64,000 nucleotides of DNA from Verrucomicrobiia bacterium (GTDB taxonomy: Bacteria > Verrucomicrobiota > Verrucomicrobiia > Palsa-1439). Positions 6,836-41,290 of the stretch are shown here, in pieces (the first letter of the stretch is position 1; every line of letters starts with the position of its first letter). The DNA lies in the NCBI GenBank assembly GCA_037441425.1, contig JBBISF010000001.1:69068-133067 (forward strand). Direction: 5' to 3'. The notes under the pieces are model-generated. The model did not search any database, had not been told where the DNA came from, and saw only the letters and a program-made list of their open reading frames with translations. A program made the translations under genes and the position numbers.

Positions 6836-6882
6836 AACGATTGACGCGCGGGTGCCTGCGCGGCAAACTGTGGCCTCTCAGA

Positions 6883-8310: not shown

Positions 8311-9181
8311 ACGCCGACAACTCTGGCTGGGGCTGGCCTTCATCAGCCCGTGGATCATCGGGTTTCTGGCGTTCACGCTCTACCCGGTGCTCGCGTCCAT
8401 CTACTATTCGTTTTGCGACTACGACGTGCTCTCCAAACCGGTCTGGGTCGGCACGCTCAATTTCCACGACATGTTGACGGACAGCGCGTTCTGGCAATCG
8501 CTTTGGAATACGCTGTATTACGCCGCGTTCTCCCTGCCGCTCGGGCTGGTGATTTCGTTGGTGGTGGCCGTGTTGCTGAACCAACCGGTCCGCGGCCGCG
8601 CGGCATTCCGCGCGATCTTTTTCCTGCCATCGCTGATCCCGATCGTGGCCGGCTCGATGATTTGGCTATGGATCTTGAACGGCAATTTCGGATTGTTGAA
8701 CCACGCGCTGGAGTTGATCGGCATCAAGGGCCCGCAGTGGCTGGCCGATGAGAAGTGGACGAAACCGTCATTGATCCTGATGTCGCTGTGGGGTTGCGGT
8801 AACACCATCGTCATTTACCTCGCCGCGTTGCAGGACGTGCCACGGTCGTTGTACGAGGCCGCGGAGATTGACGGCGCGACGGCGTGGGCGCGGCTCTGGC
8901 ACGTGACCGTCCCGATGATCTCGCCGGTCATCTACTTCAACCTCATCATGAGCATCATCGGTTCGCTGCAAGTGTTCGCCAATGCCTATATCATGCTCGG
9001 CGGCGGCGGGCCGAACCGCTCAGCGCTGTTCTACGCGGTGTACCTGTACCAAAACGCGTTTGAGTACCGGCAAATGGGTTACGCCTGCGCGATGGCGTGG
9101 GTGTTGTTCCTCATCATCCTGTTTCTGACGTGGGTCGCCACGCGCACCACGCGCAAACTCATCTTCTATGGAGGGGAATAA
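8297..9181 (+). CDS. sugar ABC transporter permease (MalF/UgpA-like)
   Basis: It has 6 TM helices and the EAA loop AAEIDGATAWARLWHVTVP. Confidence 0.85.
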   Translation: MTRGERRQLWLGLAFISPWIIGFLAFTLYPVLASIYYSFCDYDVLSKPVWVGTLNFHDMLTDSAFWQSLWNTLYYAAFSLPLGLVISLVVAVLLNQPVRGRAAFRAIFFLPSLIPIVAGSMIWLWILNGNFGLLNHALELIGIKGPQWLADEKWTKPSLILMSLWGCGNTIVIYLAALQDVPRSLYEAAEIDGATAWARLWHVTVPMISPVIYFNLIMSIIGSLQVFANAYIMLGGGGPNRSALFYAVYLYQNAFEYRQMGYACAMAWVLFLIILFLTWVATRTTRKLIFYGGE

Positions 9182-9184
9182 CGC

Positions 9185-10102
9185 ATGCGTGTCCTGTCCC
9201 GCATCCTGATCTACCTGCTGTTGCTGCTCGGTTCGGTCATGTTTCTCATCCCGCTGGTGTGGATGATTTCGACCGGTCTCAAACCGATCGAACAAACCAT
9301 GTCCATGCCGCCGACGTGGCTCCCTTACCGGTTGTACGTCAAAGCAGACGGCAAGTTGACCGAGATTCAGCAGGCCGACTTGGGCAAGTACCCGGCCAAC
9401 GAGATCGTGAAGAAATTCGCCCCGCGCTGGGGCAACTTCGCCGCGGCCATCCGCGCGATGAAGTTCTTCCCGCTCTACCTCAAGAACACGCTCGTGCTCT
9501 GCCTCCTCACGGTGATCGGCACGGTATTCTCCAGCGCGCTCGCGGCGTATGGTTTTGCGCGCATCGAATGGTTGGGCCGCAATAAGGTGTTTCTCGTGGC
9601 GCTGGCGACGATGATGGTGCCGTTCCCGGTGGTGATGGTGCCGTTGTACTGCATGTTCCGCGCGCTGGGCTGGATCGGTACACTCAAACCGTTGTGGGTC
9701 GGCTCGTTCTTTGCCGGGGCGTTCAACGTGTTCCTGCTCCGGCAATTCTTCATGTCGATTCCCAAAGACCTATCCGAAGCTGCCCGGATCGACGGCTGCA
9801 GCGAGTTTCGTATCTTCTGGCAGATCATCCTGCCGTTGTGCCGGCCCGCACTGATGGTCGTCGGCCTGTTCCAGTTCATGGCGACATGGAACGATTTTCT
9901 CGGCCCGCTGATTTACCTGACCGACCAGAAGGATTTCACGCTGGCGCTCGGCCTGCAGTTCTTCCAGAGCCAGCACGGCGGCACCGAGTGGCATTACCTG
10001 ATGGCCGCCAGCACGTTGGTCGCGTTGCCGATCATTGTCCTCTTCTTCTTCACGCAAAAAACATTCATCGAAGGCATTTCGATGACCGGTCTCAAGGGCT
10101 AA
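9185..10102 (+). CDS. sugar ABC transporter permease (MalG/UgpE-like)
   Basis: EAA loop EAARIDGCSEFRIFWQIILP. It starts 4 nt after the upstream permease. Confidence 0.85.
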   Translation: MRVLSRILIYLLLLLGSVMFLIPLVWMISTGLKPIEQTMSMPPTWLPYRLYVKADGKLTEIQQADLGKYPANEIVKKFAPRWGNFAAAIRAMKFFPLYLKNTLVLCLLTVIGTVFSSALAAYGFARIEWLGRNKVFLVALATMMVPFPVVMVPLYCMFRALGWIGTLKPLWVGSFFAGAFNVFLLRQFFMSIPKDLSEAARIDGCSEFRIFWQIILPLCRPALMVVGLFQFMATWNDFLGPLIYLTDQKDFTLALGLQFFQSQHGGTEWHYLMAASTLVALPIIVLFFFTQKTFIEGISMTGLKG

Positions 10103-10105
10103 CCA

Positions 10106-11173
10106 TTGAATACATTCAAACTGAAGCGTTACACGGACAACCCCATCATCAGTCCCACCGCAGATTCATCGTGGGAAAATATCTGCACCTGCAATCCCGG
10201 GGCGTGGTGGGACGGTCGCCAAGTCCACTTACTCTACCGGGGCGGCCCGGACACTGACCAACACCCCATCCATTTCGGTCTGGCCGAGAGTACCGATGGT
10301 TTCCACTTCGCGCGCGTCTCGGGCCGGCCCGTCTTCAGTCCCGCGCCCGGCAGTTGGGACGGTGGCTGCATTGAAGACCCGCGCATTGTCCGGTTTGGCG
10401 ACACCTACTTTGTCACCTACGCTGCGCGGATGTTTCCGCCGGCCGCCTACTGGCGCAAGAAATTCCCCCTGAACGCCTTCAATCCGCCGTTGCCCCCGGA
10501 AGCGCCATTGGCCGCCCGCAAAAACCTCACCCGCTCCGGCTTGGCGTTGACGAAAGATTTTCGCGCGTGGCACCGGCTCGGCCCGCTTACCGCCGCCGAT
10601 CTCGACGATCGCGACGTAATCGTCTTCCCCGAACAGGTCGCCGGCCAGTTCGTCCTGCTCCATCGCCCCGGCAGTTGGGTGGGCCCCACCTACGGATGCG
10701 AACGCCCGTCCATCTGGATGTCGTTCAGCGACGACCTGTTGTGTTGGCGGAACGAGCACTTGCTCGCCCAACCGGTTTTCGATTGGGAATGCCGGAAGAT
10801 CGGCGGCAGCACTCCGCCCATCAAGACCACCAAAGGTTGGCTAACCCTCTACCACGGCGTCGACGACCAAATGATCTACCGCGTCGGGGCCATGCTCCTC
10901 GATCTGAAGAATCCTCTGCAAATCCTTGGTCGCACCCCCCAACCAATTCTGGAACCGGTTGCCGAATATGAGCGGGCCGGCCTGGTCCCTAATGTGGTCT
11001 TCCCCTGCGGGAATGTCGTCATCAACGGCACACTGTTCGTGTACTACGGCGGTGCCGACAAGGTTTGCTGTGTCGCCACATGCCCGTTGATGGACCTGGT
11101 CGAATACACCCTCGACCACCCGCCATTGCACACCCAGAGTACCAGCGCGCGCGGTCTCGGCATAGGACATTAA
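10106..11173 (+). CDS. GH130-family glycoside hydrolase / beta-mannoside phosphorylase
   Basis: NPGAWWDGRQVHLLYRGG...GLAESTDGFHF...WDGGCIEDPRIVRFGDTYFVTYAA is the GH130 five-bladed propeller signature. Confidence 0.8.
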   Translation: MNTFKLKRYTDNPIISPTADSSWENICTCNPGAWWDGRQVHLLYRGGPDTDQHPIHFGLAESTDGFHFARVSGRPVFSPAPGSWDGGCIEDPRIVRFGDTYFVTYAARMFPPAAYWRKKFPLNAFNPPLPPEAPLAARKNLTRSGLALTKDFRAWHRLGPLTAADLDDRDVIVFPEQVAGQFVLLHRPGSWVGPTYGCERPSIWMSFSDDLLCWRNEHLLAQPVFDWECRKIGGSTPPIKTTKGWLTLYHGVDDQMIYRVGAMLLDLKNPLQILGRTPQPILEPVAEYERAGLVPNVVFPCGNVVINGTLFVYYGGADKVCCVATCPLMDLVEYTLDHPPLHTQSTSARGLGIGH

Positions 11174-13817: not shown

Positions 13818-13866
13818 GAAAGAAAAACGAAAAGGGGGAAAGAAGCGGCTGCGGCTTCTTTCCCCC
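13818..13866 (-). terminator. rho-independent terminator downstream of flp
   Basis: A perfect 13-bp stem GGGGGAAAGAAGC/GCTTCTTTCCCCC (13834-13846 and 13854-13866) with a 7-nt loop. On the minus strand it is followed by UUUUCGUUUUUCUUU. Confidence 0.7.
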
Positions 13867-13888
13867 TCTCGTTATCTGCGTCAGCAAA

Positions 13889-14062
13889 CTATTGCAGGTT
13901 CGTGTTGACGCTTTGGAGTTTGCTGTTGACGTTGGTGCCGATACCTTTCAGCACCAAAATCGCCACCACTGAGATCAAGGCGAGGATGAGTGCATACTCA
14001 ACCAAGCTCTGACCTGAGCGGCCGTTAAATTTCCGCATCACTTTGGCGAGCTTCTTCTTCAT
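13889..14062 (-). CDS. flp: Flp/Fap-family type IVb pilin
   Basis: MKKKLAKVMRKFNGRSGQSLVEYALILALISVVAILV contains the Flp G-x4-EY motif. A strong SD, GGGAGGTGA, lies 5 nt upstream of the ATG at 14062. The 14095 start in the ORF track is a TTG. Confidence 0.8.
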   Translation of the reverse strand: MKKKLAKVMRKFNGRSGQSLVEYALILALISVVAILVLKGIGTNVNSKLQSVNTNLQ

Positions 14063-14102: not shown

Positions 14103-14131
14103 TGCTCTCCATCAACAGTTCCCGTGCCACG
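14103..14131 (-). promoter_or_regulatory. candidate sigma-54 (-24/-12) promoter upstream of flp
   Basis: The minus strand reads TGGCACG-GGAA-CTGTT about 60 nt upstream of the flp ATG. The -24 element is perfect, but the -12 is degenerate (GT instead of GC). Confidence 0.2.
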
Positions 14132-14285
14132 TTGGTTACGGAACAAGGTAATCGCTCTAGACCGCTGGAATTAAGCCAATTAGCGGATGTGCTGTCTGAA
14201 AAAGGCTTTTCTTTTTTCTACGAAAGTCGCTCGTTTCAACGAACATGTGAGCCAAAAAATGTTCAACAATTGGACACCGGCTGGC

Positions 14286-15830
14286 CTATCTGAGCAGTTC
14301 GTACAATCTGTTGCCCGATCCTTCCACCGGCCGCGTTATCAGAGGGGTGAAGTACCGGGCATAGATGTTCACGTCCATACCGGGCGGCACCACGAGCAAA
14401 ACCTGCCGATGATTCTCTGTGTCCAAACCGCTGACGAAACTCAAATGTTCGCCTTGCACGCACCACAAGGGTTTGCCGGGCGGGCTGGGGATGGTCGGGT
14501 CCGGTGCAAGTTGGTATTGCCGAAACTCGGGCAGGTGTAACTGAAAGATCCGCAACCCAAAACTGTAATGGGCGGCCAGCGCGTGACAGATCACCGTGTC
14601 CGCTGGCTGGTAACGTGAACGAATCGCGGTGACAACTTGCGCCACTTGCCGGTCATGTTGGCGAATCTCCCGCGCGGTGCGGCCATATCCGAGCAACACG
14701 TCATCCCACCGTTGGGGCCAAGCGAGGAACACGAAAATGTTGCCAGCCGCCACCAACCCCACCACCGTCAGGTAACACCAGTTCCGCCGCAACTGGGCCA
14801 CGACGGCCGCGCTCAATGACAACAAGGCCGGCAAGTAACCCAGCACATGTCCCGGCTGCGAAGTGAATTGAATCACGGTGCCGAATAGCACCATTGGCAC
14901 AATCCACAGCGCCAACACCCGGCCCGCCCGGCGATGGGCCGTATCCCACACCTGTTTTTGTTGAGGCGACATCCCCCACACCCGGTAAACCACCGCACCC
15001 ACCAGCGGGACGACGCCCAAGAGCAGGCCATTCCAACAAAAGGCGATGGACAGATAGCAGTTCGTGAACAGCGCCGGCCAACCACCGCCGGTCAACGTGC
15101 CGGAAGCGTTATTCTGGTTGTAGCGCCGGACGATGTCCCAATAAACACGCCAACCTTCGGATTGATGTAACATCGGGAAAAACCAGCTTGCCCCCAGACC
15201 GAGCGCCACCAGGATCGCCACCAGGAGTTTCAGCAGCCGCCGGGTCGAAAAATGCCAAAACACATACGCCAATAACGGCAACAGCACGGGCACGGTCTGT
15301 TGCCGGATACCGCCGACCACCGCAACGAGGACTCCCACGCCGACGGCGTCCCCCCAAGTCCCACCGCGTTGCAGCGCCCGCCAACACCACCAAACCGTCA
15401 GGCAAATCCCGCACGCGTCCACCACATACGTCAGTGCCACTTCGCTGTGAAACCAGAATTGCGGACTGGTCAGCGCGAAAAGCCCGGCGGCCAGACCCGC
15501 GCGCCGCCCGAACATTCCGCTCCCCAATCCATAGAGCACGACCGGCACGGCACTACCAAACAGGACATCCAGCCACACCAGACTTGCGTGCGGATCACCC
15601 ACCGCGAAATTCACCAATCGCCCCAGCATCACATACAGGAAGTAGCCGGGCGCGTGCGGCTGACTCAAGGCGACATTGTACGCCTGGATCGCCAACGCAA
15701 ACTGGGCGCCATCCCAGTGGTACGCGTACTGACTGCGGAACGGCACCCGCAGCGCGAAGGCGACCACCAGCAACAGCAACGTGATGCGCCCATCGGTTGT
15801 GGATCGTTTACCGGGCTTGGGGGATGTACA
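14286..15830 (-). CDS. polytopic membrane protein, GT-C-fold glycosyltransferase-like (ArnT/PMT-like)
   Basis: About 515 aa with more than 10 predicted TM helices. YHWDGAQFALAIQAY in the first extracytoplasmic loop carries an acidic residue. Start chosen at 15830, just after the upstream gene stop; 15890 is possible. Confidence 0.55.
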   Translation of the reverse strand, partial: CTSPKPGKRSTTDGRITLLLLVVAFALRVPFRSQYAYHWDGAQFALAIQAYNVALSQPHAPGYFLYVMLGRLVNFAVGDPHASLVWLDVLFGSAVPVVLYGLGSGMFGRRAGLAAGLFALTSPQFWFHSEVALTYVVDACGICLTVWWCWRALQRGGTWGDAVGVGVLVAVVGGIRQQTVPVLLPLLAYVFWHFSTRRLLKLLVAILVALGLGASWFFPMLHQSEGWRVYWDIVRRYNQNNASGTLTGGGWPALFTNCYLSIAFCWNGLLLGVVPLVGAVVYRVWGMSPQQKQVWDTAHRRAGRVLALWIVPMVLFGTVIQFTSQPGHVLGYLPALLSLSAAVVAQLRRNWCYLTVVGLVAAGNIFVFLAWPQRWDDVLLGYGRTAREIRQHDRQVAQVVTAIRSRYQPADTVICHALAAHYSFGLRIFQLHLPEFRQYQLAPDPTIPSPPGKPLWCVQGEHLSFVSGLDTENHRQVLLVVPPGMDVNIYARYFTPLITRPVEGSGNRLYELLR

Positions 15831-17310
15831 CATAATAAGTCCGGTCGCAATGCGCGAGCCGGTAAGTAGCAGCCAACCGGTAGCGCGCACGCATCAACGT
15901 CAACCAACGCTCGGGAAAAAATCGCCACCGATCAGATTGATCTAAGGGGCGCAACGCGACAATCGCTCCGAACGCGCCCGTCGTGATCTGCCGGCATACC
16001 GCCGCATCATCGAATCGGCCGTGTTCTTGCATGACCGCCAACGCGCTGGCATCAGTCAGATAAACCGGGCGGCCGCAACGCAATGTCAGATAGGGATCTT
16101 CGATCAGCAATGGATCGCTCCAAGCCCTCATGGCGGCCAGCAAGTGCTCCCACGCTTGGACTTGCGCCGCGCGCATCGCGCGGTGGTGGACGATTTCCCG
16201 TTCATAAATCGGCCAGCGCATCACGCGTTGCCCCAGCGTCAGCACGACCGCGCCACAGGTCAGCCCCAGCCAGGTGAACCGCAACCATTGACCGCCGCGC
16301 ACCACGGCCCAGCGGTCGAGCAACAAGGCCGCCAGGACGCAGCCCACCGCCGCCGGTTCCAAGTAATGACTGGGAGCCGTTCCCGGATTGGTTGTCCGCA
16401 CAAACGCGAATACCAAGGCGACTCCAAAATAGCGTTTCAGAAACGTCGTCGTCTTGTCCCCGGTCAGGCACGTCAGGCCCACAATCCCGCCCAACAGGCT
16501 GCCCGGATGCAACGCCAGCACCGCCAGCAACATCGTGACCGGCCACCGCCATTCGGTAAACAGACTGAGCCAACCGGTGACGTTGGGCAGGAACGCGCCA
16601 TGGCTCAGCCACTGCGTCAGCACCGTTGTGCCACCCACCACGGCGGCCCAGCCGGCGGCCAACGCGACCGCTTCGCCCCATCGCTTCTGCCGGCATTCCT
16701 CCCATAACACGACCAGCAACGCAGCCGTCGCAGTTTGTTTGCAAAGGAACGCCAGCACCAACAGACCCATCGCCCCGGCCCGCCCCCACCCACTGTCACA
16801 CCGGCAGTACAACCACACCCCACTCAGCGACAGGAACAACGCCGCCGCGTCCGGTCGGAAGGCAATCGCGTACTCGGGCGTCAGATTCCCGGCCAGCCAC
16901 AGCAGCATCCCGAACGCCGCCACCAACCGGCCCCCGCCCGCTTGACGAACGACCAGCCAGATCATGACTGCAATCCCGCCCCACGCCACCCACGTAAATA
17001 GCCGCCCGATCACCAACGTCCCGACTGGCCCGGTCTTGAGACCCCGCGCGCACCAGCCCGGCAGATAGTACATCAGCGGCGGATACGGACTAACCGCATA
17101 AGGTGGGACGGAGAAGTTCCCATACGGGCAACGCCCTTCCCGCACTTGCGTCAATCCATACAGGGTCACACCTTCCGACAGGGCGGTTTCTCCATCCAGG
17201 TCCAGAGAGGAGATCGAGCGCGCTTCCCAGAGCGCGGTCGACACGACCAGACAGACCACCAAACACCATGTCACTTTGCGTAGCTCCCCGGCTGGACGTT
17301 GGATATTCAC
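15808..17310 (-). CDS. polytopic membrane protein, GT-C-like glycosyltransferase candidate
   Basis: The GTG start at 17310 overlaps the upstream TGA (GTGA). The first 150 aa of the 652-aa ORF are low-complexity readthrough. The first loop has LDLDGETALSEG, and about 12 TM helices follow. Confidence 0.5.
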   Translation of the reverse strand: MNIQRPAGELRKVTWCLVVCLVVSTALWEARSISSLDLDGETALSEGVTLYGLTQVREGRCPYGNFSVPPYAVSPYPPLMYYLPGWCARGLKTGPVGTLVIGRLFTWVAWGGIAVMIWLVVRQAGGGRLVAAFGMLLWLAGNLTPEYAIAFRPDAAALFLSLSGVWLYCRCDSGWGRAGAMGLLVLAFLCKQTATAALLVVLWEECRQKRWGEAVALAAGWAAVVGGTTVLTQWLSHGAFLPNVTGWLSLFTEWRWPVTMLLAVLALHPGSLLGGIVGLTCLTGDKTTTFLKRYFGVALVFAFVRTTNPGTAPSHYLEPAAVGCVLAALLLDRWAVVRGGQWLRFTWLGLTCGAVVLTLGQRVMRWPIYEREIVHHRAMRAAQVQAWEHLLAAMRAWSDPLLIEDPYLTLRCGRPVYLTDASALAVMQEHGRFDDAAVCRQITTGAFGAIVALRPLDQSDRWRFFPERWLTLMRARYRLAATYRLAHCDRTYYVYIPQAR

Positions 17311-18557
17311 GCGCCTTGCCTCGACGGCTGTTTGGCGTTGATCATTTGACGGAGGAAGAACCGCGCGACCAATAGCATCCCGGCCAAGGGCAGCGAGTTT
17401 ACCAGGAGCTTCAGGTACAGATCGTGTTTGAGAAACGGGGTTTCCCAGCGATTGATGTTGTAGAGATTGTTCAGCAGGACAAACGCCAGTCCCATGATGA
17501 GCCACTCCCGGTAATCCGTCTTCCCGGCAAGCTGCGCGCACGCCACGGCCATCGGAAAAATCAGGAACACCAGATAATGGCCCCACGTCATCATGCCGCC
17601 CACCAACATCACGACGCTCAGCCAACAGAATTCCATTTCCAGGCTGCCGCCCCACCGGGCGCATGCGCCATATCCCGCCACCAACAACAACATGCCAACG
17701 CCGATTCCGCAAGTACTCCATAATTCCGCGACTGCATCCGTCGGGTGAAAATGGTCGGGCAAACATCCCAGCTTCATCATAAAGGACGGCAGACTGAAGT
17801 TATAAATGCTTTCGACCGCGTAACGTTGGAGGTACGGAACGGCATAGACTTCAAAGTCCCACCACCGGCCGGGACCTGTAGCCAACACGGTCAACGTGAT
17901 GAGTCCGGCTACCAGCATCAGGCGTTTGCCGCGGACGGCCCAAGAACCGTGGCTCCGCCATAAAAACCAGGGCAACAGTACGAATGGGTAAAGTTTGATC
18001 ACGCCGGCAATCGTCACCAAGATGCAGGCGACAGTGGATCGTCCCCGCTGCAGTTGTACGTAGCCGGCCAGCACCAGCGCCGCCAACAGAAGCTGGGTTT
18101 GCGCAAAACCAAAATGCCACAACAATACCGGGGACGTGAGTACGGCGCAGATGATCCAGTCGCGCCCGTGTGCGAGCCGGTCATCCAACAACCGCATGGT
18201 CAGCCAGAGAATCACCGCCAACGCGAGCGCTTGGACCAAGGTCCACGCCAGCATCGCCCCTCCCGGCGGCAACAGCGCAAACGGAACAAACAACCAGAGC
18301 AATCCCGGTGGGTTGGTCGCGTACGGAATGCGTGCGGACACCTCAAAGCCGTATTTGGCGTAATAAGTCGCGAGCGGCGTCGAATACACCGGCAAACCCT
18401 CCAGCAGCACCCGGCTGGAGACGTAGTAATGCGAAAAATCAATCGTGTGCACCCGCAGCGGCAACACCGCCACAATCCGCCACACGCACCAGCCGGCCAG
18501 CGCCACGGCCACGAGGCGAATCAAGCGTGAATGCAAAATGCACAGCAGGCGGTTCAT
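17307..18557 (-). CDS. DUF2029/GT87-like membrane glycosyltransferase (polyprenol-P-mannose mannosyltransferase-like)
   Basis: A 416-aa protein with about 11 TM helices. It resembles DUF2029/GT87, including KLYPFVLLPWFLW. Confidence 0.55.
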   Translation of the reverse strand: MNRLLCILHSRLIRLVAVALAGWCVWRIVAVLPLRVHTIDFSHYYVSSRVLLEGLPVYSTPLATYYAKYGFEVSARIPYATNPPGLLWLFVPFALLPPGGAMLAWTLVQALALAVILWLTMRLLDDRLAHGRDWIICAVLTSPVLLWHFGFAQTQLLLAALVLAGYVQLQRGRSTVACILVTIAGVIKLYPFVLLPWFLWRSHGSWAVRGKRLMLVAGLITLTVLATGPGRWWDFEVYAVPYLQRYAVESIYNFSLPSFMMKLGCLPDHFHPTDAVAELWSTCGIGVGMLLLVAGYGACARWGGSLEMEFCWLSVVMLVGGMMTWGHYLVFLIFPMAVACAQLAGKTDYREWLIMGLAFVLLNNLYNINRWETPFLKHDLYLKLLVNSLPLAGMLLVARFFLRQMINAKQPSRQGA

Positions 18558-18566
18558 GGGGTGGTT

Positions 18567-18582
18567 CTGATTTGGTAATCAG
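18567..18582. promoter_or_regulatory. inverted repeat CTGATT-N4-AATCAG in the 5' leader of the GT87-like gene
   Basis: CTGATTTGGTAATCAG lies 10 nt upstream of the minus-strand ATG at 18557, in the divergent intergenic region. Confidence 0.3.
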
Positions 18583-18635
18583 CCTAGCAAGTTTTCTTCC
18601 AGACCGCGAGCCGGCCGCACCGCGCGGCTTTGGAG

Positions 18636-18663
18636 TTGCGCCTGCGTTTCGGGCCGTTATACT
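18636..18663 (+). promoter_or_regulatory. candidate sigma-70-type promoter for the plus-strand triple-paralog operon
   Basis: TTGCGC, then a 16-nt spacer, then TATACT. AGGAGG follows at 18671-18676 and the GTG start at 18683. Confidence 0.3.
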
Positions 18664-18682
18664 GCGCGGCCAGGAGGATGGC

Positions 18683-20140
18683 GTGGCTGACGATCTGCCC
18701 CGGCAGGCTTGGCGCTGGTGGCTCCCATCAGTAAGTCAATGGTTGTGGCTGCTGCTCGTGTGGCTGCTGCTCACACCGGCATGGCGAACCGTCATGGTGT
18801 CGGCCGATGGCGATCCGTGCATGCATTGGGCGGTCGGCAAATGGATGCTGCAGCACCGGGAGATTATGCAGGCCGATGTCTTTTCCTACACCCGGTCCGG
18901 CGCGCCCATTATTTCCACGGAGTGGCTGGCGGAGGTGATCTTCGCCTTGGCCGGGCGGTGGGCGGGTTTGGATGGTCTCGCCATCGTGGCGGCGTTTGTG
19001 ATCGCGACGACGTTCGCGCTGTTGCACCGGCAGTTGGTCCGCGAGGGGGGCGACTTGTTGGTGGCCACCGCCGTCACGTTGCTGGCGGCATGGGCCGCCA
19101 CGAACCATTGGCTGGCACGCCCGCACGCGTTCAGCTTCCTGATGATTCTGCTGTGGCACGCTGCGTTGCGCGTGCACGAACGGGACGGCAACGCCCGACG
19201 GCTTGTCATGTGGTTGGCGGTTCTGGCAGTCTTGTGGGTGAATTTGCACGGCGCGTTTATCGCCGGTTTTTTCGTGCTGGGCGCGTATTGGCTCGGCGCG
19301 TTCGTGGAACGGGACCGTCGGAAACTCGGCCAGTTGACGCTCGCCGGTGTGGTTGCCGGCGCGGCCACGTTGCTCAACCCCAGCGGCTGGCGGCTGCACC
19401 TCCACAACCTCGAATTCCTCCAATCCAAGTTCTTCACGGGCTATCTCGCCGAATATCAGTCCACCAACTTTCAGGCAGCGAGTGGCGTGGGGTTTCTCAT
19501 TTGGTTGTCGCTGCTGTTTCTGGTGCTGGTGTTGAACCGGCCACGGTGGACGGCCGGCGAGATTTTCCTGTTGCTGTCGTGGGGGTACTTTGCGCTTTAC
19601 GCCGGCCGCAACATCGGGCTGCTCGCCATTCTCACCGCGCCGCTCGTGACGCAGTCCATCGCGCTAACCGGCGTGGGAGCGCGCCTGTCGGCCAGACTGC
19701 GGCGACTCAATGAAGCAACCGGCAGTTGGCTCCTGATGGTGGCGCTTGGCGTGGCCGCCGTGATTTTCCTGCCGCCGAGCGCCAAGATGCCGCCCAAGAC
19801 TTGGCCGGTCCCGGCCGTGGAATATATCCGCCACCACCCCGCCGAGTTTACCGGCAACATGCTTAATCAATACATGTGGGGCGGCTATCTGATGCTGTAT
19901 TTGCCGGAACATCGTGTGTTTGTGGATGGCCGGGCGGATTTCTACGGCGAAGCGTTGGTGAAGGATTTTCAACTCGTCACCTCCCTGCGACCCGGTTGGC
20001 AGACCCCGCTCGAAAAATATCATATCACCTGGACGTTGATGCCGACCGACCATCCGTTGAATCAAGCGCTGGCGCTGCTGCCGGGGTGGCGGCAAGTGTA
20101 CACCGATCCGGTCGCCACCATCTGGCGCAAGACCCCATGA
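18683..20140 (+). CDS. GT-C-like polytopic membrane protein, paralog A of a tandem triplet
   Basis: GTG start with a perfect AGGAGG 6 nt upstream. The upstream part of the 656-aa ORF is antisense overlap. Motifs VMVSADGDPCMHWAVGKWML, WVNLHGAFIAGFF and WGGYLMLYLPEHRVFVDGRADFYG. Confidence 0.6.
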   Translation: MADDLPRQAWRWWLPSVSQWLWLLLVWLLLTPAWRTVMVSADGDPCMHWAVGKWMLQHREIMQADVFSYTRSGAPIISTEWLAEVIFALAGRWAGLDGLAIVAAFVIATTFALLHRQLVREGGDLLVATAVTLLAAWAATNHWLARPHAFSFLMILLWHAALRVHERDGNARRLVMWLAVLAVLWVNLHGAFIAGFFVLGAYWLGAFVERDRRKLGQLTLAGVVAGAATLLNPSGWRLHLHNLEFLQSKFFTGYLAEYQSTNFQAASGVGFLIWLSLLFLVLVLNRPRWTAGEIFLLLSWGYFALYAGRNIGLLAILTAPLVTQSIALTGVGARLSARLRRLNEATGSWLLMVALGVAAVIFLPPSAKMPPKTWPVPAVEYIRHHPAEFTGNMLNQYMWGGYLMLYLPEHRVFVDGRADFYGEALVKDFQLVTSLRPGWQTPLEKYHITWTLMPTDHPLNQALALLPGWRQVYTDPVATIWRKTP

Positions 20141-21537
20141 ATCAGCGCCTGCCTGTCATCGTTTTCCTGGGGATGGTCGCCGTGCTGGCGACCCATTGCA
20201 TTTACGATCCGGATGTCTGGTACCATCTCGCTGTCGGCGATCACATTCTCACCACACACCAAGTTCAGCACACCAATCTGTTCTCCTTCACCTACCCCCA
20301 GCATCCATGGATTGACGTGTATTGGCTGTATGACTGTCTGCTGGCCGCGCTGTGGCGGCTGGGCGGGAGCTTGTTCGTAATTGCGCTGAAAGTCTTGTTG
20401 AATCTGGTGTTGGCGGCGCTCGTGGTGTTCGGCCTGCGAGACCGCCGTCAACAATTGACCGGTGGGGAAACCACGGTGCTCATGCTGGCGTGGTTGGTCA
20501 TGTTGCCCCGGCTGTCGGATCGTCCGGAGTTACTGAGCTATGTCCTGCTGGCCGCGGTCCTCGTCCTCATCCGGCAAGGCCGCCTGTGGTGGTGCATCCC
20601 GATTCAAATCGTCTGGGCCAACGTCCACAGTCTGTACTATCTGGGCCCGGTGCTCTTGTTACTATACGCCGTGGCCACGCGGCAGGCGCGGGTGTTACCG
20701 GTCGTGCTGGCTACCGGTCTAGCCTGTCTCGTTTCGCCGTACGGCTGGAACAACTTGCGGGTGGCCGGTGAACTCATGCACACCTTGCGCGTATTGGGCA
20801 ACCAAGTGCAGGAATTCCCCAGCCCGTTTCACCCGCGCGCCTGGGCCAGCGGCGCCAACTCGCTGCTGTTCCTGATATGGGTCGTCGGGGGCGGCCTCCT
20901 CCTGCTCCGGTCGTGGTCCCGACAAACGTTGTTTGATGGATTCATCATCCTGCTCAGCGTCGGACTGGCGATGCGCACCCAACGCGCCGTCCCGCTGGCG
21001 GTGCTCTGTTCCTTGCCGGCGGTCCTGTTGGCCGTCCGCCAGTTGCCGGCAACCAATGGCGTGTTGCGCTGGGTGGCGGTTGGGTTCATGGGGCTGATCG
21101 CCGGGGATTTTCTGGCCGGCACCCACTACCTGATCCGCTCGCCCCGAGGTGATCTCACGTTCGGGATCCGGGTGTATCCCCGGAATTTTCCGAACTCGGT
21201 CGTTGATCTCCTGACCGCGCTGCCGCCCTCGGCGCGGGTCGCCAACGTTCATTTTCATACCGGCGGATTTCTGATTTGTGCGTTTGCGGGCGCGCGACCG
21301 GTTTTCATTGATCCCCGCTTGGAGGCGTATCCCCGCGAGTTCATCGCCGCGTACGATGCCAGCCTTCAAAGCGCCCAACGTTTTTCACAGTTCACCGACC
21401 GCTTCCGGGTCACTCACGCACTGATCATCAAAGACAACGCGGAAGCTTGCCGGCTGGCCCGCTGGCTGGCGGGCGACAAGGGCTGGCGCCGCGTTTCCGG
21501 TAATGAGCAAGCCGAACTTTACGAACGCACCCCATGA
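20136..21537 (+). CDS. GT-C-like polytopic membrane protein, paralog B (more diverged)
   Basis: The ATG overlaps the upstream TGA (ACCCCATGAA). Motifs DPDVWYHLAVGDHIL, VWANVHSLYYLGP and C-terminal PVFIDPRLEAYPREF. Confidence 0.6.
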
Positions 21538-23030
21538 ACAATCGCTCGTCTTTTCCCCGCGTTCTCGTGCCCTCGGTTGGCGTCGGCCTCTGGGTGATTG
21601 TGTTTCTGATCCTGACCTTGTCGAATTGGCGCTTCGTGTTGGTCAGCGCCGATGGCGATCCGGCGCTGCACTGGCGTATGGGCGACTGGATGCTCACGCA
21701 TCACGCCATCCTGCACACCGATCAGTTCTCACACACCCAGCCGGATGCGCCGTTCATCACCAAGGAATGGCTGAGCGAGATTCTCTTTGCCGGGGCGGGC
21801 GACCGTCTGGGGTGGAACGGATTTGTGCTGGTGGCGGCCATCCTGATCGCGACCACGCTTTGGCTGTTGCACCGGCAACTGCTCACTGAAAACTGTGAGC
21901 CGTTGCTGGCCGCCGGGTTGGTGGTGCTGGCGACCTTTGCCATGTCGCAACACTGGCTGGCGCGCCCACATTTGTTCACGCATTTGCTCGCCTTGCTGTT
22001 TGCCCTCAAGCTGCGCGCGTTCGCCCGCAATCGACTGCCGGTTACCCGGTTGTTCGCGTGGCTGGTTCCGCTCATGGTGATGTGGGTGAATCTGCACGGC
22101 GCGTTTTTCATCGGGTTCGTGTTAATTGGCTGTTACTTGGTGGGGATGGTTTTGGATCGCGCGCAGTGGGCCCGGTCTAAAACATTCGCTTTCGTGTTGC
22201 TTGGTTGTTTGGTCGCTTCTTGGCTGAACCCGAACGGTTGGAATCTGCACGCCCATATCATCCGCTTCATCCACAGCCCGACATTGACGGGTTACACCAA
22301 CGAATTCCGCTCACCGGATTTCCATTCGCCGGCGATGCACGGGTTCCTGCTGCTGTTGCTGGTGGTCGCTGTCCTGTTGACCTGGATCCGGCCGCGGCTC
22401 GCCAAGGCCGACATTATCCTGCTGGCGGTGTGGGGTTATTTTGCGCTCCACTCGGTGCGCAACATCCCGATCTTCGCCATCGTGGCAGTGCCAATCTTGG
22501 GTGAATATCTCAGTCATTGGCTGCGGGAACGCTGGACCGGTGGACGATTGCCGGTCACGCAGCGCGTCGCCGAGCGCTTTCACCGGTGGCAACCGGGGCG
22601 CGCCGGGGCGGGCGTGATCGTTCTGACGGTTGGTCTCGTGGTGTACGTGATGCAAACCGGGCGGCTGCGCACCGATTTACTGCCGGATCGCTTTCCGGTG
22701 CAGGCGGTGGAATTTCTCCGGCAACACCCGGAGCAGATTCATGGCGAGATGTTCAACGCCTATGGCTGGGGGGGGTACTTAATGTTGGCGCTGCCGGAGC
22801 ACAAGGTTTTCGTGGACAGCCGCAATGATTTCTACGGTGCCCGGTTCATGAAGGCATTCGATCGGGCGGACAAAGTGCAGCCCGGCTGGGAAGAGGTCTT
22901 TCAGAAATACAACGTCGGCTGGACGTTGCTGCCGGTCGCGCATCCGTTAAACAGTCTGCTCGCCTTGCAGCCCAAGGTTTGGAAGGACATTTATCGCGAT
23001 CACGTCGCGGTGATTTACGCGCGCCGGTAG
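21534..23030 (+). CDS. GT-C-like polytopic membrane protein, paralog C
   Basis: The ATG overlaps the upstream TGA through the same ACCCCATGAA junction. Motifs VLVSADGDPALHWRMGDWML, WVNLHGAFFIGFV and WGGYLMLALPEHKVFVDSRNDFYG. Confidence 0.65.
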   Translation: MNNRSSFPRVLVPSVGVGLWVIVFLILTLSNWRFVLVSADGDPALHWRMGDWMLTHHAILHTDQFSHTQPDAPFITKEWLSEILFAGAGDRLGWNGFVLVAAILIATTLWLLHRQLLTENCEPLLAAGLVVLATFAMSQHWLARPHLFTHLLALLFALKLRAFARNRLPVTRLFAWLVPLMVMWVNLHGAFFIGFVLIGCYLVGMVLDRAQWARSKTFAFVLLGCLVASWLNPNGWNLHAHIIRFIHSPTLTGYTNEFRSPDFHSPAMHGFLLLLLVVAVLLTWIRPRLAKADIILLAVWGYFALHSVRNIPIFAIVAVPILGEYLSHWLRERWTGGRLPVTQRVAERFHRWQPGRAGAGVIVLTVGLVVYVMQTGRLRTDLLPDRFPVQAVEFLRQHPEQIHGEMFNAYGWGGYLMLALPEHKVFVDSRNDFYGARFMKAFDRADKVQPGWEEVFQKYNVGWTLLPVAHPLNSLLALQPKVWKDIYRDHVAVIYARR

Positions 23031-24416
23031 CTAGCGGATGGCGTCGGGATCAATACTGAACTTTTTGAGTTTGGCGTAGAGCGTCGTGCGGCTGATTTGC
23101 AGTTGTTCCGCCGTGCGTTTGATGTTGCCGGCGTGTTGCCGGAGGGTGCTGAGTAGGATTTGCTTCTCTGGTTCTTCGAGTTGATCCGCCAACCGGGGCG
23201 AAACCTGAGCGGAGGAGACTTGGGAGAGTCGCTTGGGTAAATCGGTTTGCTCCACCAGGGGCGATTTGGCGAGCACGACCGCCTGCAACACCACGTTTTC
23301 CAGCTCGCGGACGTTGCCCGGCCACCGATACGCGTTCATCAGCGCAATGGCCGGGTCGGTGAATCCGCGCACGTCTTTGTGGTGTTGCCGGCTGAACCGG
23401 CGGAGAAATTCCATCGCCAACAGAGGAATGTCTTCCACCCGTTCGCGCAGCGGCGGGACGCGGATTTCCACGACGTTCAGCCGGTGGAACAGGTCTTCCC
23501 GGAAACGTCCGTCCGCCACGCACTCTTCCAGTGCTTGGTTCGTTGCGGCGACAATCCGCACATCCACTGAAATTGGTTTCGCTCCTCCCACCCGCTCAAA
23601 GGTCCGGGTCTGCAAGACGCGCAGCAGTTTGGCCTGCACCCCCAGATCGATGTTGGAAACCTCGTCAAGGAACAGCGTGCCGCCGTTGGCCCGTTCGAAC
23701 CGGCCAATATGCCGGTCGGTCGCGCCGGTGAACGCGCCTTTTTCGTGGCCGAAGAGTTCGCTTTCCAACAATTCGCGCGCGAGCGCCGAGCAATCCATCG
23801 TCACCAGCGGTTTGCCATGCCGGGAACTGGCTTCGTGAATGGCCCGCGCCACCAACTCTTTGCCCGTGCCGGTTTCACCGAAGATCAACACGTTCGCGTA
23901 GCTATCGGCGATGGTCTGGATCAACTCGAAGATGTCCTGCATCTGCGCGTTGCGGCTGATGATGCCGTAGAATCCGGGGGCGGGTTCCGCCAGCAGACCC
24001 CGGTGTTGCGGATCGGCTAAATCCGCCCGCACGCTCCGTTGTCGTTGCTGAGCGGCTCGGATTACCGACTCGCGCACCGCCTCAATCGACGGCGCTTGTA
24101 GCCCGCGCTCTTGGTAATCAAAGACACCCAGTTTCGTAGCTTGCACGGCTTGAGTAACCGATGGTCTGGCCGTGCAGATGATGAACATCACATTGGGATG
24201 GATCTGCCGAACCTGTTCGAGGAACGCATCGCCGTTTGCACCGGGGAGGTTAATGTCGGCCACAAGAAGATCGATACCGCGTGCCTGCAACAACAACAGC
24301 GCATCATCAAACGTATGGGCCGAAAGCACTTCAAAGTTGTCTTTGATGAGCGCCTCAGACACACCCAACGTCCAAGACGCATCGGTGTCCAAGAGTAGCA
24401 CTTTGAACTTTGGCAT
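23031..24416 (-). CDS. sigma-54-dependent Fis-family response regulator (NtrC-like: REC + AAA+ + HTH)
   Basis: Receiver KVLLLDTD...LLVADINLPG. Walker A GETGTGKELVARAIH. GAFTGA motif HEKGAFTGA. C-terminal Fis HTH RTTLYAKLKKF. Start ATG at 24416 (MPKFKV). Confidence 0.85.
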   Translation of the reverse strand: MPKFKVLLLDTDASWTLGVSEALIKDNFEVLSAHTFDDALLLLQARGIDLLVADINLPGANGDAFLEQVRQIHPNVMFIICTARPSVTQAVQATKLGVFDYQERGLQAPSIEAVRESVIRAAQQRQRSVRADLADPQHRGLLAEPAPGFYGIISRNAQMQDIFELIQTIADSYANVLIFGETGTGKELVARAIHEASSRHGKPLVTMDCSALARELLESELFGHEKGAFTGATDRHIGRFERANGGTLFLDEVSNIDLGVQAKLLRVLQTRTFERVGGAKPISVDVRIVAATNQALEECVADGRFREDLFHRLNVVEIRVPPLRERVEDIPLLAMEFLRRFSRQHHKDVRGFTDPAIALMNAYRWPGNVRELENVVLQAVVLAKSPLVEQTDLPKRLSQVSSAQVSPRLADQLEEPEKQILLSTLRQHAGNIKRTAEQLQISRTTLYAKLKKFSIDPDAIR

Positions 24417-24482
24417 GTTCAGCCGTCGCTTATGAGTGTCAACCGTCGCCGGGAACTTTCTCGGACCGACTTGGCAGATTCT

Positions 24483-24497
24483 CTGGACAGTGTCCAG
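24483..24497. promoter_or_regulatory. perfect 7-1-7 palindrome CTGGACA-G-TGTCCAG upstream of the sigma-54 regulator gene
   Basis: It lies about 70-80 nt upstream of the minus-strand ATG at 24416. Confidence 0.35.
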
Positions 24498-24641
24498 CAA
24501 CCGATGAGCCAGACCCAGATGAACAGAGCCAATCCAGCCGCATGGCAGCGCATGTTCATAGCCATCCGAGCCTTGTTTGTCAAGGCTGCCGGAGCGGTTA
24601 AGACAGCTTACCGGGACTAGGATGACACAGCGGTGAACATG

Positions 24642-27792: not shown

Positions 27793-29859
27793 TCAGGGAG
27801 CTTGCGGGCTGTCGTTCCCGGTTGTGGATGGTTCGGCCTCGTCCAGGTTGTGATGGCCGACGACCATGCCGTCGTCCAGAGCGTTGCGTTTGACGGTCTT
27901 CAACGACCGGAACAGTTGGATCAAATCGCGAATCCCGCCCCACGTGAACCACACCGTGGTCACGACGCCGATGATGAAGGGCAGGAAGATCACGTAGATG
28001 TACCAGTAGTGGCCCCACGTGACCAGCGACCACGGCCGCCATAAATACCACGCGGTACCCACGAGAAACACGATAAACCAGAACATGCTCCAAATGAACA
28101 CACTGCTCGATAGAATCTTATCCCCCAAGGTGAATTCGTGATCGAAACCCAAGATGCCACCCCACGTGAACCGGCGTTGGGCGGTGGTGAGCGATTCACC
28201 GGGCTTGGTTTCGATGGCGTACTGGCCGCGGTGCAACATGCGGTCCATGTTGAAGTCCTCCTTGCAGGTCAGCAGGGAAATCACGATGTAGAGCGCAATG
28301 GCGACGACCATGGCGATGAACCACATCCATTGGCCGTTGATGGGAAACTTATCCGCGTGGCGCGCCAGATACTCGTGGACGGTGCCGGCCGGGAACAACG
28401 TCACCAGCTTCGGCTGGAGCTGGGTCCACATCTGTTCCAGGACGATGGCGCCGGTGGCCAGAACCGAGCCGGTCAACATGCTCACCCAAGCGGCAATATT
28501 GGTGCCTTTCTTCCAGTACAACCCGCCCAAGACCGCGCACCCGGAGCCGCCCAGGAAGATCGTGCCGGTAATGGCGAAGAACATCAGGATGTACTGGGTC
28601 TGGTTAAAGAACAGTCCAAAGAGAAACGCAAACAACCCCACGCCCGCAATTGACCAGCGGAGCAGCCGGATGTGTTGCTTGGGCAAAAGGGGTTTCTTCC
28701 AGAACGGCAGCAGCACGTCCTGCACAAAGATGCTGCCCCAGGAGTGCATGTAGGAGCCGTCACACGCGAGCATCGCGAAAAACATGATGCACGCGAACGA
28801 GCCCTTAACGCCAATGGGCAGGAGAAAGCTCAACGCCACCGGCACGCGCATCTGCTCCTGGATTTGTGCTTGGGGGATCGCCTTCAGTGCGTTGGTCACC
28901 TGCGCCGCCCCGCCGGCAAAGTCCGGGTTATTCAAATACGTGAACGCGCAAACTCCCAGCAACGAAATCATCACCGATCGCGAGACGCCGCGCCAACCAC
29001 CCAGAATATTGCCCATCTTGGCTTCATGCGGGCTGGCGGCACTGGCCCGAAAGGCGTGCCCCCCCTGCCACGACATATAGGAGTAAATGCCGCCGACAAT
29101 CCCGATCAAGACGTACCAGATGTTGAAGTCCTGCGCGCTGGCCGTGTCGAACGGATTGAGCATGGACTGGCCCTTCGGCGCGGCGGCCAAGGCCGTGTAA
29201 ATCTCCGACCACTTGAAGATGCACAACAAGGCCACCGCCACCACCAGATAAAGCACCCCGGACAGCAACCCTTCCAGACAATCGCTGATCATGATGGTCA
29301 ACTGCCCGCCGATCAGGGTCACCCCCAGCGCCGACGAAATGAAGATGGCCATCACCATGCCAAACGTCGGCACCGTGTGCCCCCAAACGGTGAGCGTCTG
29401 GGGCCAGCCGCAGTAGTTGACGAAGAACCGCGCGCCGACTGCCGGGAAGATGCCGAAGTTCAGAACACCCGAAATCCACGCCAGAATGCCGGTCAGAATC
29501 CGAAACCCTTTACTGTAACGAACCTCAAAGAGTTGGGACATCGTCAGCACCCGCGTTTCCCGGTAGCGGTAGATGACAAACCCGGTCAACGTGACGATCA
29601 ATCCGATGGGGATGCTCAACGATTGCCACCAGTTGATGGCGAACCCGGTTTTGTAAATGTACTCAAAAATCGCCACGGCGCTGACCGCGCCAAAACCAGC
29701 TTCCCCCGCGGCGTTGCAGACCAGATACCGGCCCGCGCACCGGCTGGCCGCCATGAAATCCGCCACGCTTCTCACGTAGCGCCGCGTCGCCCACGAGACG
29801 ATGACGATGACCACAATCGGCACGACCATGATGGCGTAATCAACCCAATGCATTCGCAT
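27793..29859 (-). CDS. sodium:solute symporter family (SSS) transporter
   Basis: A 688-aa protein with about 14 TM helices and an SSF-like N-terminus. Confidence 0.8.
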   Translation of the reverse strand: MRMHWVDYAIMVVPIVVIVIVSWATRRYVRSVADFMAASRCAGRYLVCNAAGEAGFGAVSAVAIFEYIYKTGFAINWWQSLSIPIGLIVTLTGFVIYRYRETRVLTMSQLFEVRYSKGFRILTGILAWISGVLNFGIFPAVGARFFVNYCGWPQTLTVWGHTVPTFGMVMAIFISSALGVTLIGGQLTIMISDCLEGLLSGVLYLVVAVALLCIFKWSEIYTALAAAPKGQSMLNPFDTASAQDFNIWYVLIGIVGGIYSYMSWQGGHAFRASAASPHEAKMGNILGGWRGVSRSVMISLLGVCAFTYLNNPDFAGGAAQVTNALKAIPQAQIQEQMRVPVALSFLLPIGVKGSFACIMFFAMLACDGSYMHSWGSIFVQDVLLPFWKKPLLPKQHIRLLRWSIAGVGLFAFLFGLFFNQTQYILMFFAITGTIFLGGSGCAVLGGLYWKKGTNIAAWVSMLTGSVLATGAIVLEQMWTQLQPKLVTLFPAGTVHEYLARHADKFPINGQWMWFIAMVVAIALYIVISLLTCKEDFNMDRMLHRGQYAIETKPGESLTTAQRRFTWGGILGFDHEFTLGDKILSSSVFIWSMFWFIVFLVGTAWYLWRPWSLVTWGHYWYIYVIFLPFIIGVVTTVWFTWGGIRDLIQLFRSLKTVKRNALDDGMVVGHHNLDEAEPSTTGNDSPQAP

Positions 29860-35673: not shown

Positions 35674-35685
35674 GTGCTTGCTGTT

Positions 35686-36963: not shown

Positions 36964-37073
36964 AACTCGCGTGTGGCGACTCTAGGGGAACCCGCGAACG
37001 AGAGCAATGTGGAAAAGCGTCCGGCAGGAATTGTCACGACCCTCACCGAGCGCTGTCCGCCCCCCCCGGGTCT

Positions 37074-40815: not shown

Positions 40816-40818
40816 CCT

Positions 40819-41241: not shown

Positions 41242-41290
41242 TCGTGGCCGGCATTGACAAGCCGCCCACCCCGCCCCTACTCTGCCCGGC

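Follow-up and report, generated by a model that had tools for sequence, protein, structure and literature searches.

What are six consecutive genes for membrane-embedded glycosyltransferases doing beside a gene for a pilin? The question is raised by a stretch of 64,000 nucleotides from a Verrucomicrobiia bacterium (GenBank assembly GCA_037441425.1, contig JBBISF010000001.1, positions 69,068 to 133,067), referred to below as the window, that is, the whole stretch of DNA that was analyzed. Here genes A to F form two divergent trios, and flp, encoding a Flp/Fap prepilin, lies behind gene A. We propose that the six genes and flp constitute a periplasmic module for glycosylation of the Flp (Tad) pilin, a reading to which we assign a probability of about 0.55. 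Two lines of evidence carry this proposal: the assignment of the six proteins to the GT-C class of glycosyltransferases, and the recurrence of the protein family of D, E and F within Tad pilus operons. The genes in question are as follows.

14286-15833, minus strand: gene A, 515 amino acids; ATG start at 15833 and a 26-nt overlap with the end of gene B.
15808-17310, minus strand: gene B, 500 amino acids; GTG start within a GTGA overlap with the stop codon (TGA) of gene C.
17307-18557, minus strand: gene C, 416 amino acids.
18558-18682: divergent spacer of 125 bp between the C-B-A and D-E-F operons.
18683-20140, plus strand: gene D, 485 amino acids; GTG start with AGGAGG 6 nt upstream.
20137-21537, plus strand: gene E, 466 amino acids; ATGA overlap with gene D.
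21534-23030, plus strand: gene F, 498 amino acids; ATGA overlap with gene E.
13889-14062, minus strand: flp, Flp/Fap prepilin, 57 amino acids; Pfam PF04964 (Flp_Fap) at 35.3 bits against a cutoff of 32.2 (E=1e-8).

According to the open reading frame (ORF) map and the translations, the six genes make up two trios that diverge from each other and are each translationally coupled: C-B-A on the minus strand and D-E-F on the plus strand. A divergent 3+3 array around a 125-bp spacer had been described in the original prediction, an earlier note on this DNA made from the letters alone, and is borne out here, as are the GTGA joint between B and C and the presence of a Flp pilin downstream of the minus-strand trio, which scores above the Flp_Fap cutoff. 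The ORF positions it gave agree with ours except for the start of gene A, which lies at 15833 and not at 15830 (3 nt off).

To which protein class do the six products belong? All are polytopic, with a short basic N-terminus and a first transmembrane helix (TM1) followed by a first loop of 50-70 amino acids that opens with an acidic motif. The original prediction had assigned 10 or more transmembrane helices to each protein. This holds for B and F, whose AlphaFold models contain ~13 membrane-length helices and then a C-terminal alpha/beta domain, and is only plausible for all six, given that a crude hydropathy scan detects only 6-9 strongly hydrophobic segments per protein. The AlphaFold2 models of B and F were built on homolog alignments and compared to the PDB using Foldseek.

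Gene A matches Pfam PMT_2 (PF13231) at 39.1 bits (cutoff 26.1) and belongs to that family. An additional TMEM260-like Pfam match of 20.9 bits remains under its cutoff, and no MIR domains were found by Pfam. The first-loop motif of A is YHWD, and D41 is kept in 15 of 15 informative homologs. Gene C falls well within Pfam GT87 (PF09594; 87.6 bits against a cutoff of 25, E=1.5e-24) and has the first-loop motif DFxHxY, with D40 invariant in 14 of 14 homologs. By its sequence, gene C is a bona fide GT87 (PimE-like) member.

Gene B produced no Pfam match of any kind and is not placed in PMT_2. For its model (pLDDT 89.4, pTM 0.90), all 40 of the 40 best Foldseek PDB matches are GT-C proteins, with ArnT (5ezm; E=2e-6, template modeling score 0.58) at the top and ALG9, STT3, AglB, Pmt4, AftA, PimE, PglB and Emb behind it. 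The B family is rare, comprising 9 relatives, or 17 after a profile search, the most distant of which carry PF13231. E46 in the first loop is invariant, and an FRPD motif (R152/D154) is present. The modeled fold indicates that gene B is a divergent ArnT/PMT_2-like GT-C protein by structure, although not a family member by sequence.

The gene F model (pLDDT 91.4, pTM 0.91) gave 21 Foldseek matches at E<=1e-3, every one of them GT-C, led by STT3, DPY19, AglB and PglB, with E values down to 4.9e-8 and template modeling scores up to 0.66. STT3, AglB and PglB are the best structural matches for both the membrane core and the C-terminal globular domain. Thus modeled, the fold of F appears nearest to AglB, STT3 and DPY19, with a C-terminal domain predicted to be periplasmic. 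Genes D and E are paralogs of F. D is 42% identical to F (E=1e-120) and retains every family-invariant residue, while E, a more distant paralog of both, aligns with F along its whole length at 26% identity (E=2e-19), contains the motif DPDVWYH and keeps D40, H46, R144, N186, H188, E257 and R309 (F numbering).

Sequence libraries were of little further help. B, D, E and F match no Pfam model, NCBIfam gave nothing meaningful for any of the six, and searches of PDB sequences with A, B, C and F returned nothing relevant; a match of B to ClpP (E ~0.1-0.9) was taken as chance. Because Pfam (A, C), fold searches of the models (B, F) and paralogy to F (D, E) converge, we consider it almost certain that all six are GT-C-type glycosyltransferases, in agreement with the original prediction. 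The acidic first-loop motifs on which that prediction had relied are conserved in homologs (D41 in A, E46 in B, D40 in C and D40 in D/E/F), and the positive-inside rule and the fold predict that this acidic residue is periplasmic. Assignment to a non-glycosyltransferase family, which the prediction had named as a finding that would tell against it, was not obtained; there was no credible match to transporters, Wzy or WaaL for the cluster proteins (Pfam for all, Foldseek for B and F).

What is the family represented by D, E and F? In an exhaustive profile search, it comprised 7,808, 22,927 and 32,701 representatives of 50%-identity clusters at E<=1e-30, E<=1e-10 and E<=1e-3, respectively. Wherever a source name exists, the members are named 'hypothetical protein', and neither Pfam nor NCBIfam holds a model for them. 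Among 90 proteins from at least six phyla, D40, H46, R144, P145, W184, N186 and R309 are 100% conserved, and D42, H188, E257 and D428 are 94-99% conserved. This set includes a D-x-D after TM1, an R-P, an N-x-H, a loop Glu and an Arg, at positions expected for a GT-C active site. D40/D42, N186/H188, E257 and R309 are reminiscent of the metal and pyrophosphate sites of oligosaccharyltransferases (OSTs), an equivalence suggested by fold class and sequence order. D/E/F do not fall within GT66, as there is no Pfam or NCBIfam match and no PDB sequence match to any OST, and they carry YGWGGY where OSTs have WWDYG.

Two other profile comparisons were set aside. Searched against PDB sequences, the D/F family profile matched only the N-lobe of AKT kinase (E ~1e-3) over ~100 residues of the C-terminal domain. 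Because the structural searches put the whole protein in GT-C, with no kinase similarity, we regard this match as chance; it spans profile positions 347-445 and is driven by Y-x-x-GG-L...F-x-x-R-x-x-FYG. When the profiles of the D/F and B families were compared with each other, the similarity was not significant (probability 1.6%), yet the alignment was collinear and paired ARPH with FRPD.

Is this family linked to pili beyond the window? A scan of GTDB species representatives identified at least 578 confirmed relatives, and the best 79 loci were taken with 10-kb flanks (individual loci are given below by L numbers). Within them, flp was found by an iterated Flp hidden Markov model and Tad components by Tad protein queries. 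The relatives come from Verrucomicrobiota, Acidobacteriota, Gemmatimonadota, Chloroflexota, Desulfobacterota/Geobacterales, Planctomycetota (an anammox metagenome-assembled genome), Melainabacteria and others. In 26 of the 79 loci, the next gene after the family gene is a co-directional flp, 0-205 bp away. Three others have flp divergently upstream, so that flp is adjacent in 29 of 79, and it lies within 3 kb in four further loci. Counting flp or at least two Tad components anywhere within the flanks, 56 of the 79 loci qualify. By Pfam counts, Tad-related families dominate among the neighbors in flp-adjacent loci: Secretin (15), RcpC (12), TadZ-like AAA_31 (11), TadE (9), TadG-like (8) and PilZ (9), as well as LuxR-type response regulators. 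A Bryobacterales chromosome (L026) carries, all on one strand, tadG, an F-like gene, three flp genes, rcpC, secretin, tadZ, tadA, tadB and tadC; in L062 the order is F-like, tadV, rcpC.

This linkage to flp/tad recurs, with differing gene orders, in Acidobacteriota, Gemmatimonadota, Chloroflexota, Desulfobacterota, Planctomycetota and Verrucomicrobiota. The D/E/F family is a recurrent tad-operon gene, usually directly upstream of flp, and in this sense an accessory gene of the operon. It is likely that the module in the window is functionally tied to Flp/Tad pili. One role suggested in the original prediction, O-glycosylation of the pilin, gains strong comparative support from the presence of the family in tad operons of at least six phyla as far as pilin glycosylation is concerned, leaving the type of linkage aside; the function is one that we infer.

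Other glycosylation genes may accompany the family gene. In Geomobilimonas luticola JCM 17780 (L031, 6690-15136, plus strand) the order is tadC, DUF192, an A-like PMT_2/TMEM260 gene, PTPS_related, an F-like gene, an S-adenosylmethionine methyltransferase, a 673-amino acid protein with no Pfam match, and GT2. We take PTPS_related to be a member of the Pfam GT-C clan. The same pair of A-like and F-like genes occurs in Geobacter sp. AOG1 (L075); both organisms are cultured.

A position inside tad operons is also typical of structural components. D, E and F could on this ground be a non-catalytic assembly or anchoring part of the Tad apparatus built on a GT-C scaffold, with only A, B and C being true glycosyltransferases in an unrelated envelope role. 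We think this quite unlikely, since the residues of GT-C active-site type are 94-100% conserved across phyla and family members are found together with other GT-Cs and GT2 genes. Furthermore, no D/E/F-type gene is known from the canonical, well-studied tad loci, and no dedicated pilin-modifying glycosyltransferase from the textbook tad locus. Literature searches, with subscription literature outside their reach, found no description of a glycosyltransferase or glycosylation enzyme of a tad locus. Likewise, no glycosyltransferase is mentioned by Denise et al. 2019 (PMC6668835), a survey of the type IV filament superfamily that follows the natural history of its Tad branch.

In 22 of the 79 loci, no Tad gene was found in the flanks. 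The neighbors in loci without adjacent flp include T2SSF (7), GT2 (6), PMT_2 (5), GT87 (4), and Secretin, RcpC and Peptidase_A24 (3 each). Both the 22 loci and the frequency of GT2, PMT_2 and GT87 fit a more general envelope glycosylation, in which the enzymes would modify a broad range of periplasmic or surface proteins, a lipoglycan, lipopolysaccharide or an adhesive polysaccharide deployed together with Tad pili, and Flp would be a co-regulated neighbor rather than the acceptor. Lipids and lipoglycans, and not only proteins, are substrates of PMT_2/ArnT-like and GT87 enzymes, ArnT and PimE being examples that appear among our structural matches, and flp in the window has a promoter and a terminator of its own. 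What makes this explanation possible but not probable is that D/E/F family genes sit inside tad operons in many phyla, either in the tadG-flp interval or directly before tadV, that the closest folds are those of the protein-modifying AglB, STT3 and DPY19, ahead of the lipid-modifying GT-Cs, and that the cluster has no genes for polysaccharide export or polymerization.

How far is the arrangement in the window conserved? Its plan is common to L002-L005, L007 and L009, Verrucomicrobial relatives in which a sigma-54 activator and fabI lie on one side, 2-4 tandem D/F paralogs diverge from genes for GT87 (1-3), a B-like protein and PMT_2 (1-3), and flp is at the far end wherever the contig extends that far. 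With B orthologs of only 38-40% identity, these genomes are not closely related. The original prediction had stated that a cluster not conserved across related genomes would argue against it; the cluster is conserved in the loci just named. In L005, C...A, flp, rcpC, secretin and tadZ follow one another on one strand, and the GT-C/flp module is physically part of the tad locus. The variable number of D/F paralogs among relatives (2-4) suggests that the glycan is diversified. Between the PMT_2-like and B-like genes, L003 (9681-9992) and L004 (6346-6657) share a conserved ORF of 103 amino acids with no counterpart in the window. It was considered as a small flippase and found to have no Pfam match and no support for that role.

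An ortholog of the activator flanks the cluster in L001-L005, L007, L008 and L009, and the copy in L006 is further away. Because fabI is also syntenic beside the regulator in the Verrucomicrobial relatives, part of this order is plain ancestry. In the window, moreover, flp is followed by a strong terminator and then by zwf/opcA, and therefore the Tad machinery lies elsewhere in the genome. Both observations would suit a juxtaposition of cluster, flp and sigma-54 regulator that is merely inherited gene order with no functional meaning. Such an explanation is very unlikely in view of the D/F-flp/tad linkage in the six phyla named above, where gene orders differ, and of the sigma-54 activator-like genes located ~1-2 kb upstream of F-like genes in two loci of Pyrinomonadaceae (Acidobacteriota; L043 7327-8466 and L057 7434-9128).

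How might flp be controlled? The features that bear on its expression are listed here.

13830-13870, minus strand: intrinsic terminator of flp, a 17-bp stem and T-run, 19 nt beyond the flp stop codon.
14115-14129, minus strand: sigma-54-type -24/-12 promoter element TGGCACGGGAACTGT, 67 nt upstream of the flp ATG.
14165-14275: AT-rich spacer from the stop of gene A to the flp promoter, identified by reading the sequence.
23031-24500, minus strand: sigma-54 enhancer-binding response regulator, convergent with gene F; Pfam Response_reg, Sigma54_activat and HTH_8 (REC + AAA+ + HTH_8); start codon uncertain.

The three Pfam domains of the response regulator confirm the earlier identification of a sigma-54 activator abutting the plus-strand trio. 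The pattern TGGCAY-N5-YTGY has a single match in the window, upstream of flp, compared to 1.45 expected, and alone is not above chance. It counts as evidence because its position is conserved in three other loci: TGGCAC/T-N5-CTGC is found 89-98 nt upstream of flp in L002, L004 and L005, so that the motif is present in four of the four loci examined, the window included. Apart from the motif, the surrounding sequence is different in the window, in L005 and in the L002/L004 pair. Sigma-54-dependent expression of flp by the flanking activator would fit these observations, with binding and dependence both predicted from sequence. No sigma-70-like promoter was found in the AT-rich spacer, which could be the place of candidate binding sites for the activator or for integration host factor. 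The 125-bp divergent spacer contains no convincing promoter and no sigma-70-like site. A weak GGC-N7-TTGC at 18626-18639 was considered as a sigma-54 site and rejected, the pattern occurring 30 times in the window with 22 expected.

Is Flp itself a plausible acceptor? The predicted mature Flp of the window is 40 amino acids long (QSLVEYALILAL...GTNVNSKLQSVNTNLQ), contains the G/XXXXEY motif and has 4 Ser/Thr in its last 18 residues. It has no N-x-S/T sequon, and a sequon is found in only 25 of 73 linked Flps. Classical N-glycosylation at a canonical sequon is therefore unlikely and was rejected as the modification. The Acidobacterial Flps encoded directly downstream of F-like genes (L018-L082, e.g. 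L039 10011-10205 and L082 11668-11880) end in tails of 7-12 residues rich in Ala, Ser, Thr, Asn and Gly. These tails often terminate in Ser, and the proteins have a conserved Trp; Verrucomicrobial Flps show neither feature. Ser-ending tails rich in Ala, Ser and Thr are reminiscent of O-glycosylation sites in other pilins and are also found in unglycosylated pilins, and the Acidobacterial tails are only a hint of an acceptor. C-mannosylation of the conserved Trp was also rejected, the residue being confined to Acidobacterial Flps. A further Flp-like pilin, encoded in a Gemmatimonadales tad locus (L035, 8685-9161, minus strand), has a long Gly/Asn-rich C-terminal extension and a mature length of ~114 amino acids. 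On balance, we lean towards Flp itself as the acceptor.

A bolder version of this idea concerns the origin of the family. The Tad system is reportedly derived from archaeal pili. The D/E/F family might be a bacterial offshoot of AglB/STT3 that accompanied the Tad pilus or was co-opted by it and acts as a sequon-independent pilin oligosaccharyltransferase, in which case Flp glycosylation would be widespread, ancestral and overlooked in the Tad pili of soil and sediment phyla. We regard this as speculative and doubtful.

If the module glycosylates Flp as we propose, the making and flipping of polyprenyl-phosphate- or polyprenyl-diphosphate-linked sugars would fall to enzymes encoded elsewhere. 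Before Flp leaves the inner membrane, its short C-terminal segment, which is exposed to the periplasm, would receive a first sugar or glycan from at least one of D, E and F. A and B (ArnT/PMT_2-like) and C (GT87) may extend or branch this glycan from polyprenyl-phosphate sugars, and the Tad machinery, located outside the window, would assemble the decorated pilin.

Several points weigh against glycosylation of Flp by this module. The window lacks Tad machinery, a GT2 polyprenyl-phosphate-sugar synthase and a flippase; a polyprenyl-phosphate-mannose synthase, which the original prediction had advised looking for, is thus not provided for here, and the small or unassigned ORFs of related clusters gave no Pfam match to a flippase or GT2. 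In the window, flp is set apart from D, E and F: it lies past gene A and is preceded by a promoter of its own. Only 40 amino acids remain in the mature Verrucomicrobial Flp, a minimal pilin with no Ser/Thr-rich tail. The 79 loci are phylogenetically skewed, with Bryobacterales over-represented, and include the 22 without a Tad gene in their flanks. Finally, cryo-electron microscopy of the Caulobacter Tad pilus showed no glycan density (PMC10710030), and Tad pilins are therefore not generally glycosylated.

What of the mannose-handling genes to which the original prediction drew attention? The window does encode a GH99/GH71-like protein (3136-4503), an ABC sugar transporter with GH130 (6589-11173) and GH38 (53404-55887). 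These are genes of mannoside catabolism, set apart from the cluster by zwf/opcA and other unrelated genes, and we rejected a link between them and the cluster. The enzymes are thus present as described, while their value as context for the cluster did not stand. Neither did we find support for a lipoglycan role, nor any evidence beyond a shared fold for the suggested analogy to the lipoglycan assembly lines of Actinobacteria. Elsewhere in the window, a single ORF of 739 amino acids (32323-34542, minus strand) contains LMWPc phosphatase (7-146), RpiB (176-313) and serine hydroxymethyltransferase (330-705) domains with no stop codons, and looks like a tri-domain fusion. Long ORFs with no Pfam match are found at 27793-29859 (minus strand, 688 amino acids), 34681-37104 (plus strand, 807 amino acids) and 40210-41385 (minus strand, 391 amino acids).

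Few bacterial adhesion organelles are as widespread as Tad/Flp pili. If Flp is indeed glycosylated by the module, a function would be assigned to a protein family that is thousands strong and has no Pfam or NCBIfam model, and a bacterial branch would be added to the proteins with an AglB/STT3/DPY19-like fold, which bears on the evolution of protein-directed GT-Cs and on glyco-engineering. In Pseudomonas, pilin glycosylation blocks pilus-specific phages (bioRxiv 10.1101/150227), and a variable number of paralogs would fit a similar phage arms race. The hypothesis is directly testable in cultured carriers such as Geomobilimonas luticola JCM 17780 and Geobacter sp. AOG1.

How does the module compare to known systems? 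Gene F resembles STT3, AglB and PglB (GT66) in its fold, in the D-x-D after TM1 and in the N-x-H, loop Glu and Arg. It differs from them in lacking sequence similarity, and the matched OST chains are ~200-350 residues longer than F. In place of the YGWGGY of D/E/F these enzymes carry WWDYG, and they use an acceptor sequon that the window's Flp and most linked Flps lack, a difference that applies only with Flp as the acceptor. Type IV pilins of archaea are among the substrates of AglB. The C-mannosyltransferase DPY19 and the protein O-mannosyltransferases PMT and TMEM260 (GT39-like) are GT-Cs that move a single mannose from a polyprenyl-type phosphate donor to proteins. DPY19 is a top structural match of F, and A matches PMT_2 and is weakly TMEM260-like, although these enzymes are eukaryotic and recognize other acceptor motifs, and A has no MIR domains.

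Among lipid-directed systems, PimE/GT87 and the mycobacterial Mpt, Emb and Aft lines share with the cluster a GT87 protein with a first-loop Asp (gene C) and several GT-Cs that possibly act in series. However, the mycobacterial lines build phosphatidylinositol-anchored lipoglycans and arabinogalactan, whereas here the genomic partner is a pilin and there is no sign of a lipid anchor. PilO/TfpO, PglL and related O-oligosaccharyltransferases carry out periplasmic pilin glycosylation, in many cases of a Ser that is C-terminal or lies in a low-complexity stretch, and in some cases their gene is found beside pilA. They are members of the Wzy_C/O-antigen-ligase superfamily and not GT-Cs, and no such match was obtained for any of the six proteins. 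Three-component systems combine a GT2 synthase, a small flippase and a GT-C that acts in the periplasm (PMC11127046). The cluster cannot be counted among them, since GT2 and flippase genes are absent from the window and from L002-L005; a likeness is seen in Geomobilimonas (L031), where GT2 accompanies the F-like and A-like genes, and in some other loci that contain GT2.

The nearest functional analogue is TfpW of Pseudomonas aeruginosa group IV strains, a periplasmic D-arabinofuranosyl transferase for pilin that uses a polyprenyl-phosphate-linked sugar donor and is encoded beside the pilin gene (bioRxiv 10.1101/2020.04.19.049825). Like D, E and F, TfpW is polytopic; its loop 1 and its large C-terminal domain are periplasmic, and its gene is a neighbor of a pilin gene, a likeness that is functional and positional only. 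In contrast to the cluster, it serves type IVa pilins, is a single enzyme rather than one of six, and has known genes for donor synthesis. What would be new here is both the GT-C family and the use of a multi-enzyme cluster on a class of pilus with no described dedicated glycosylation system, extending pilin-adjacent GT-C glycosylation from the type IVa pilins of TfpW to the Tad class.

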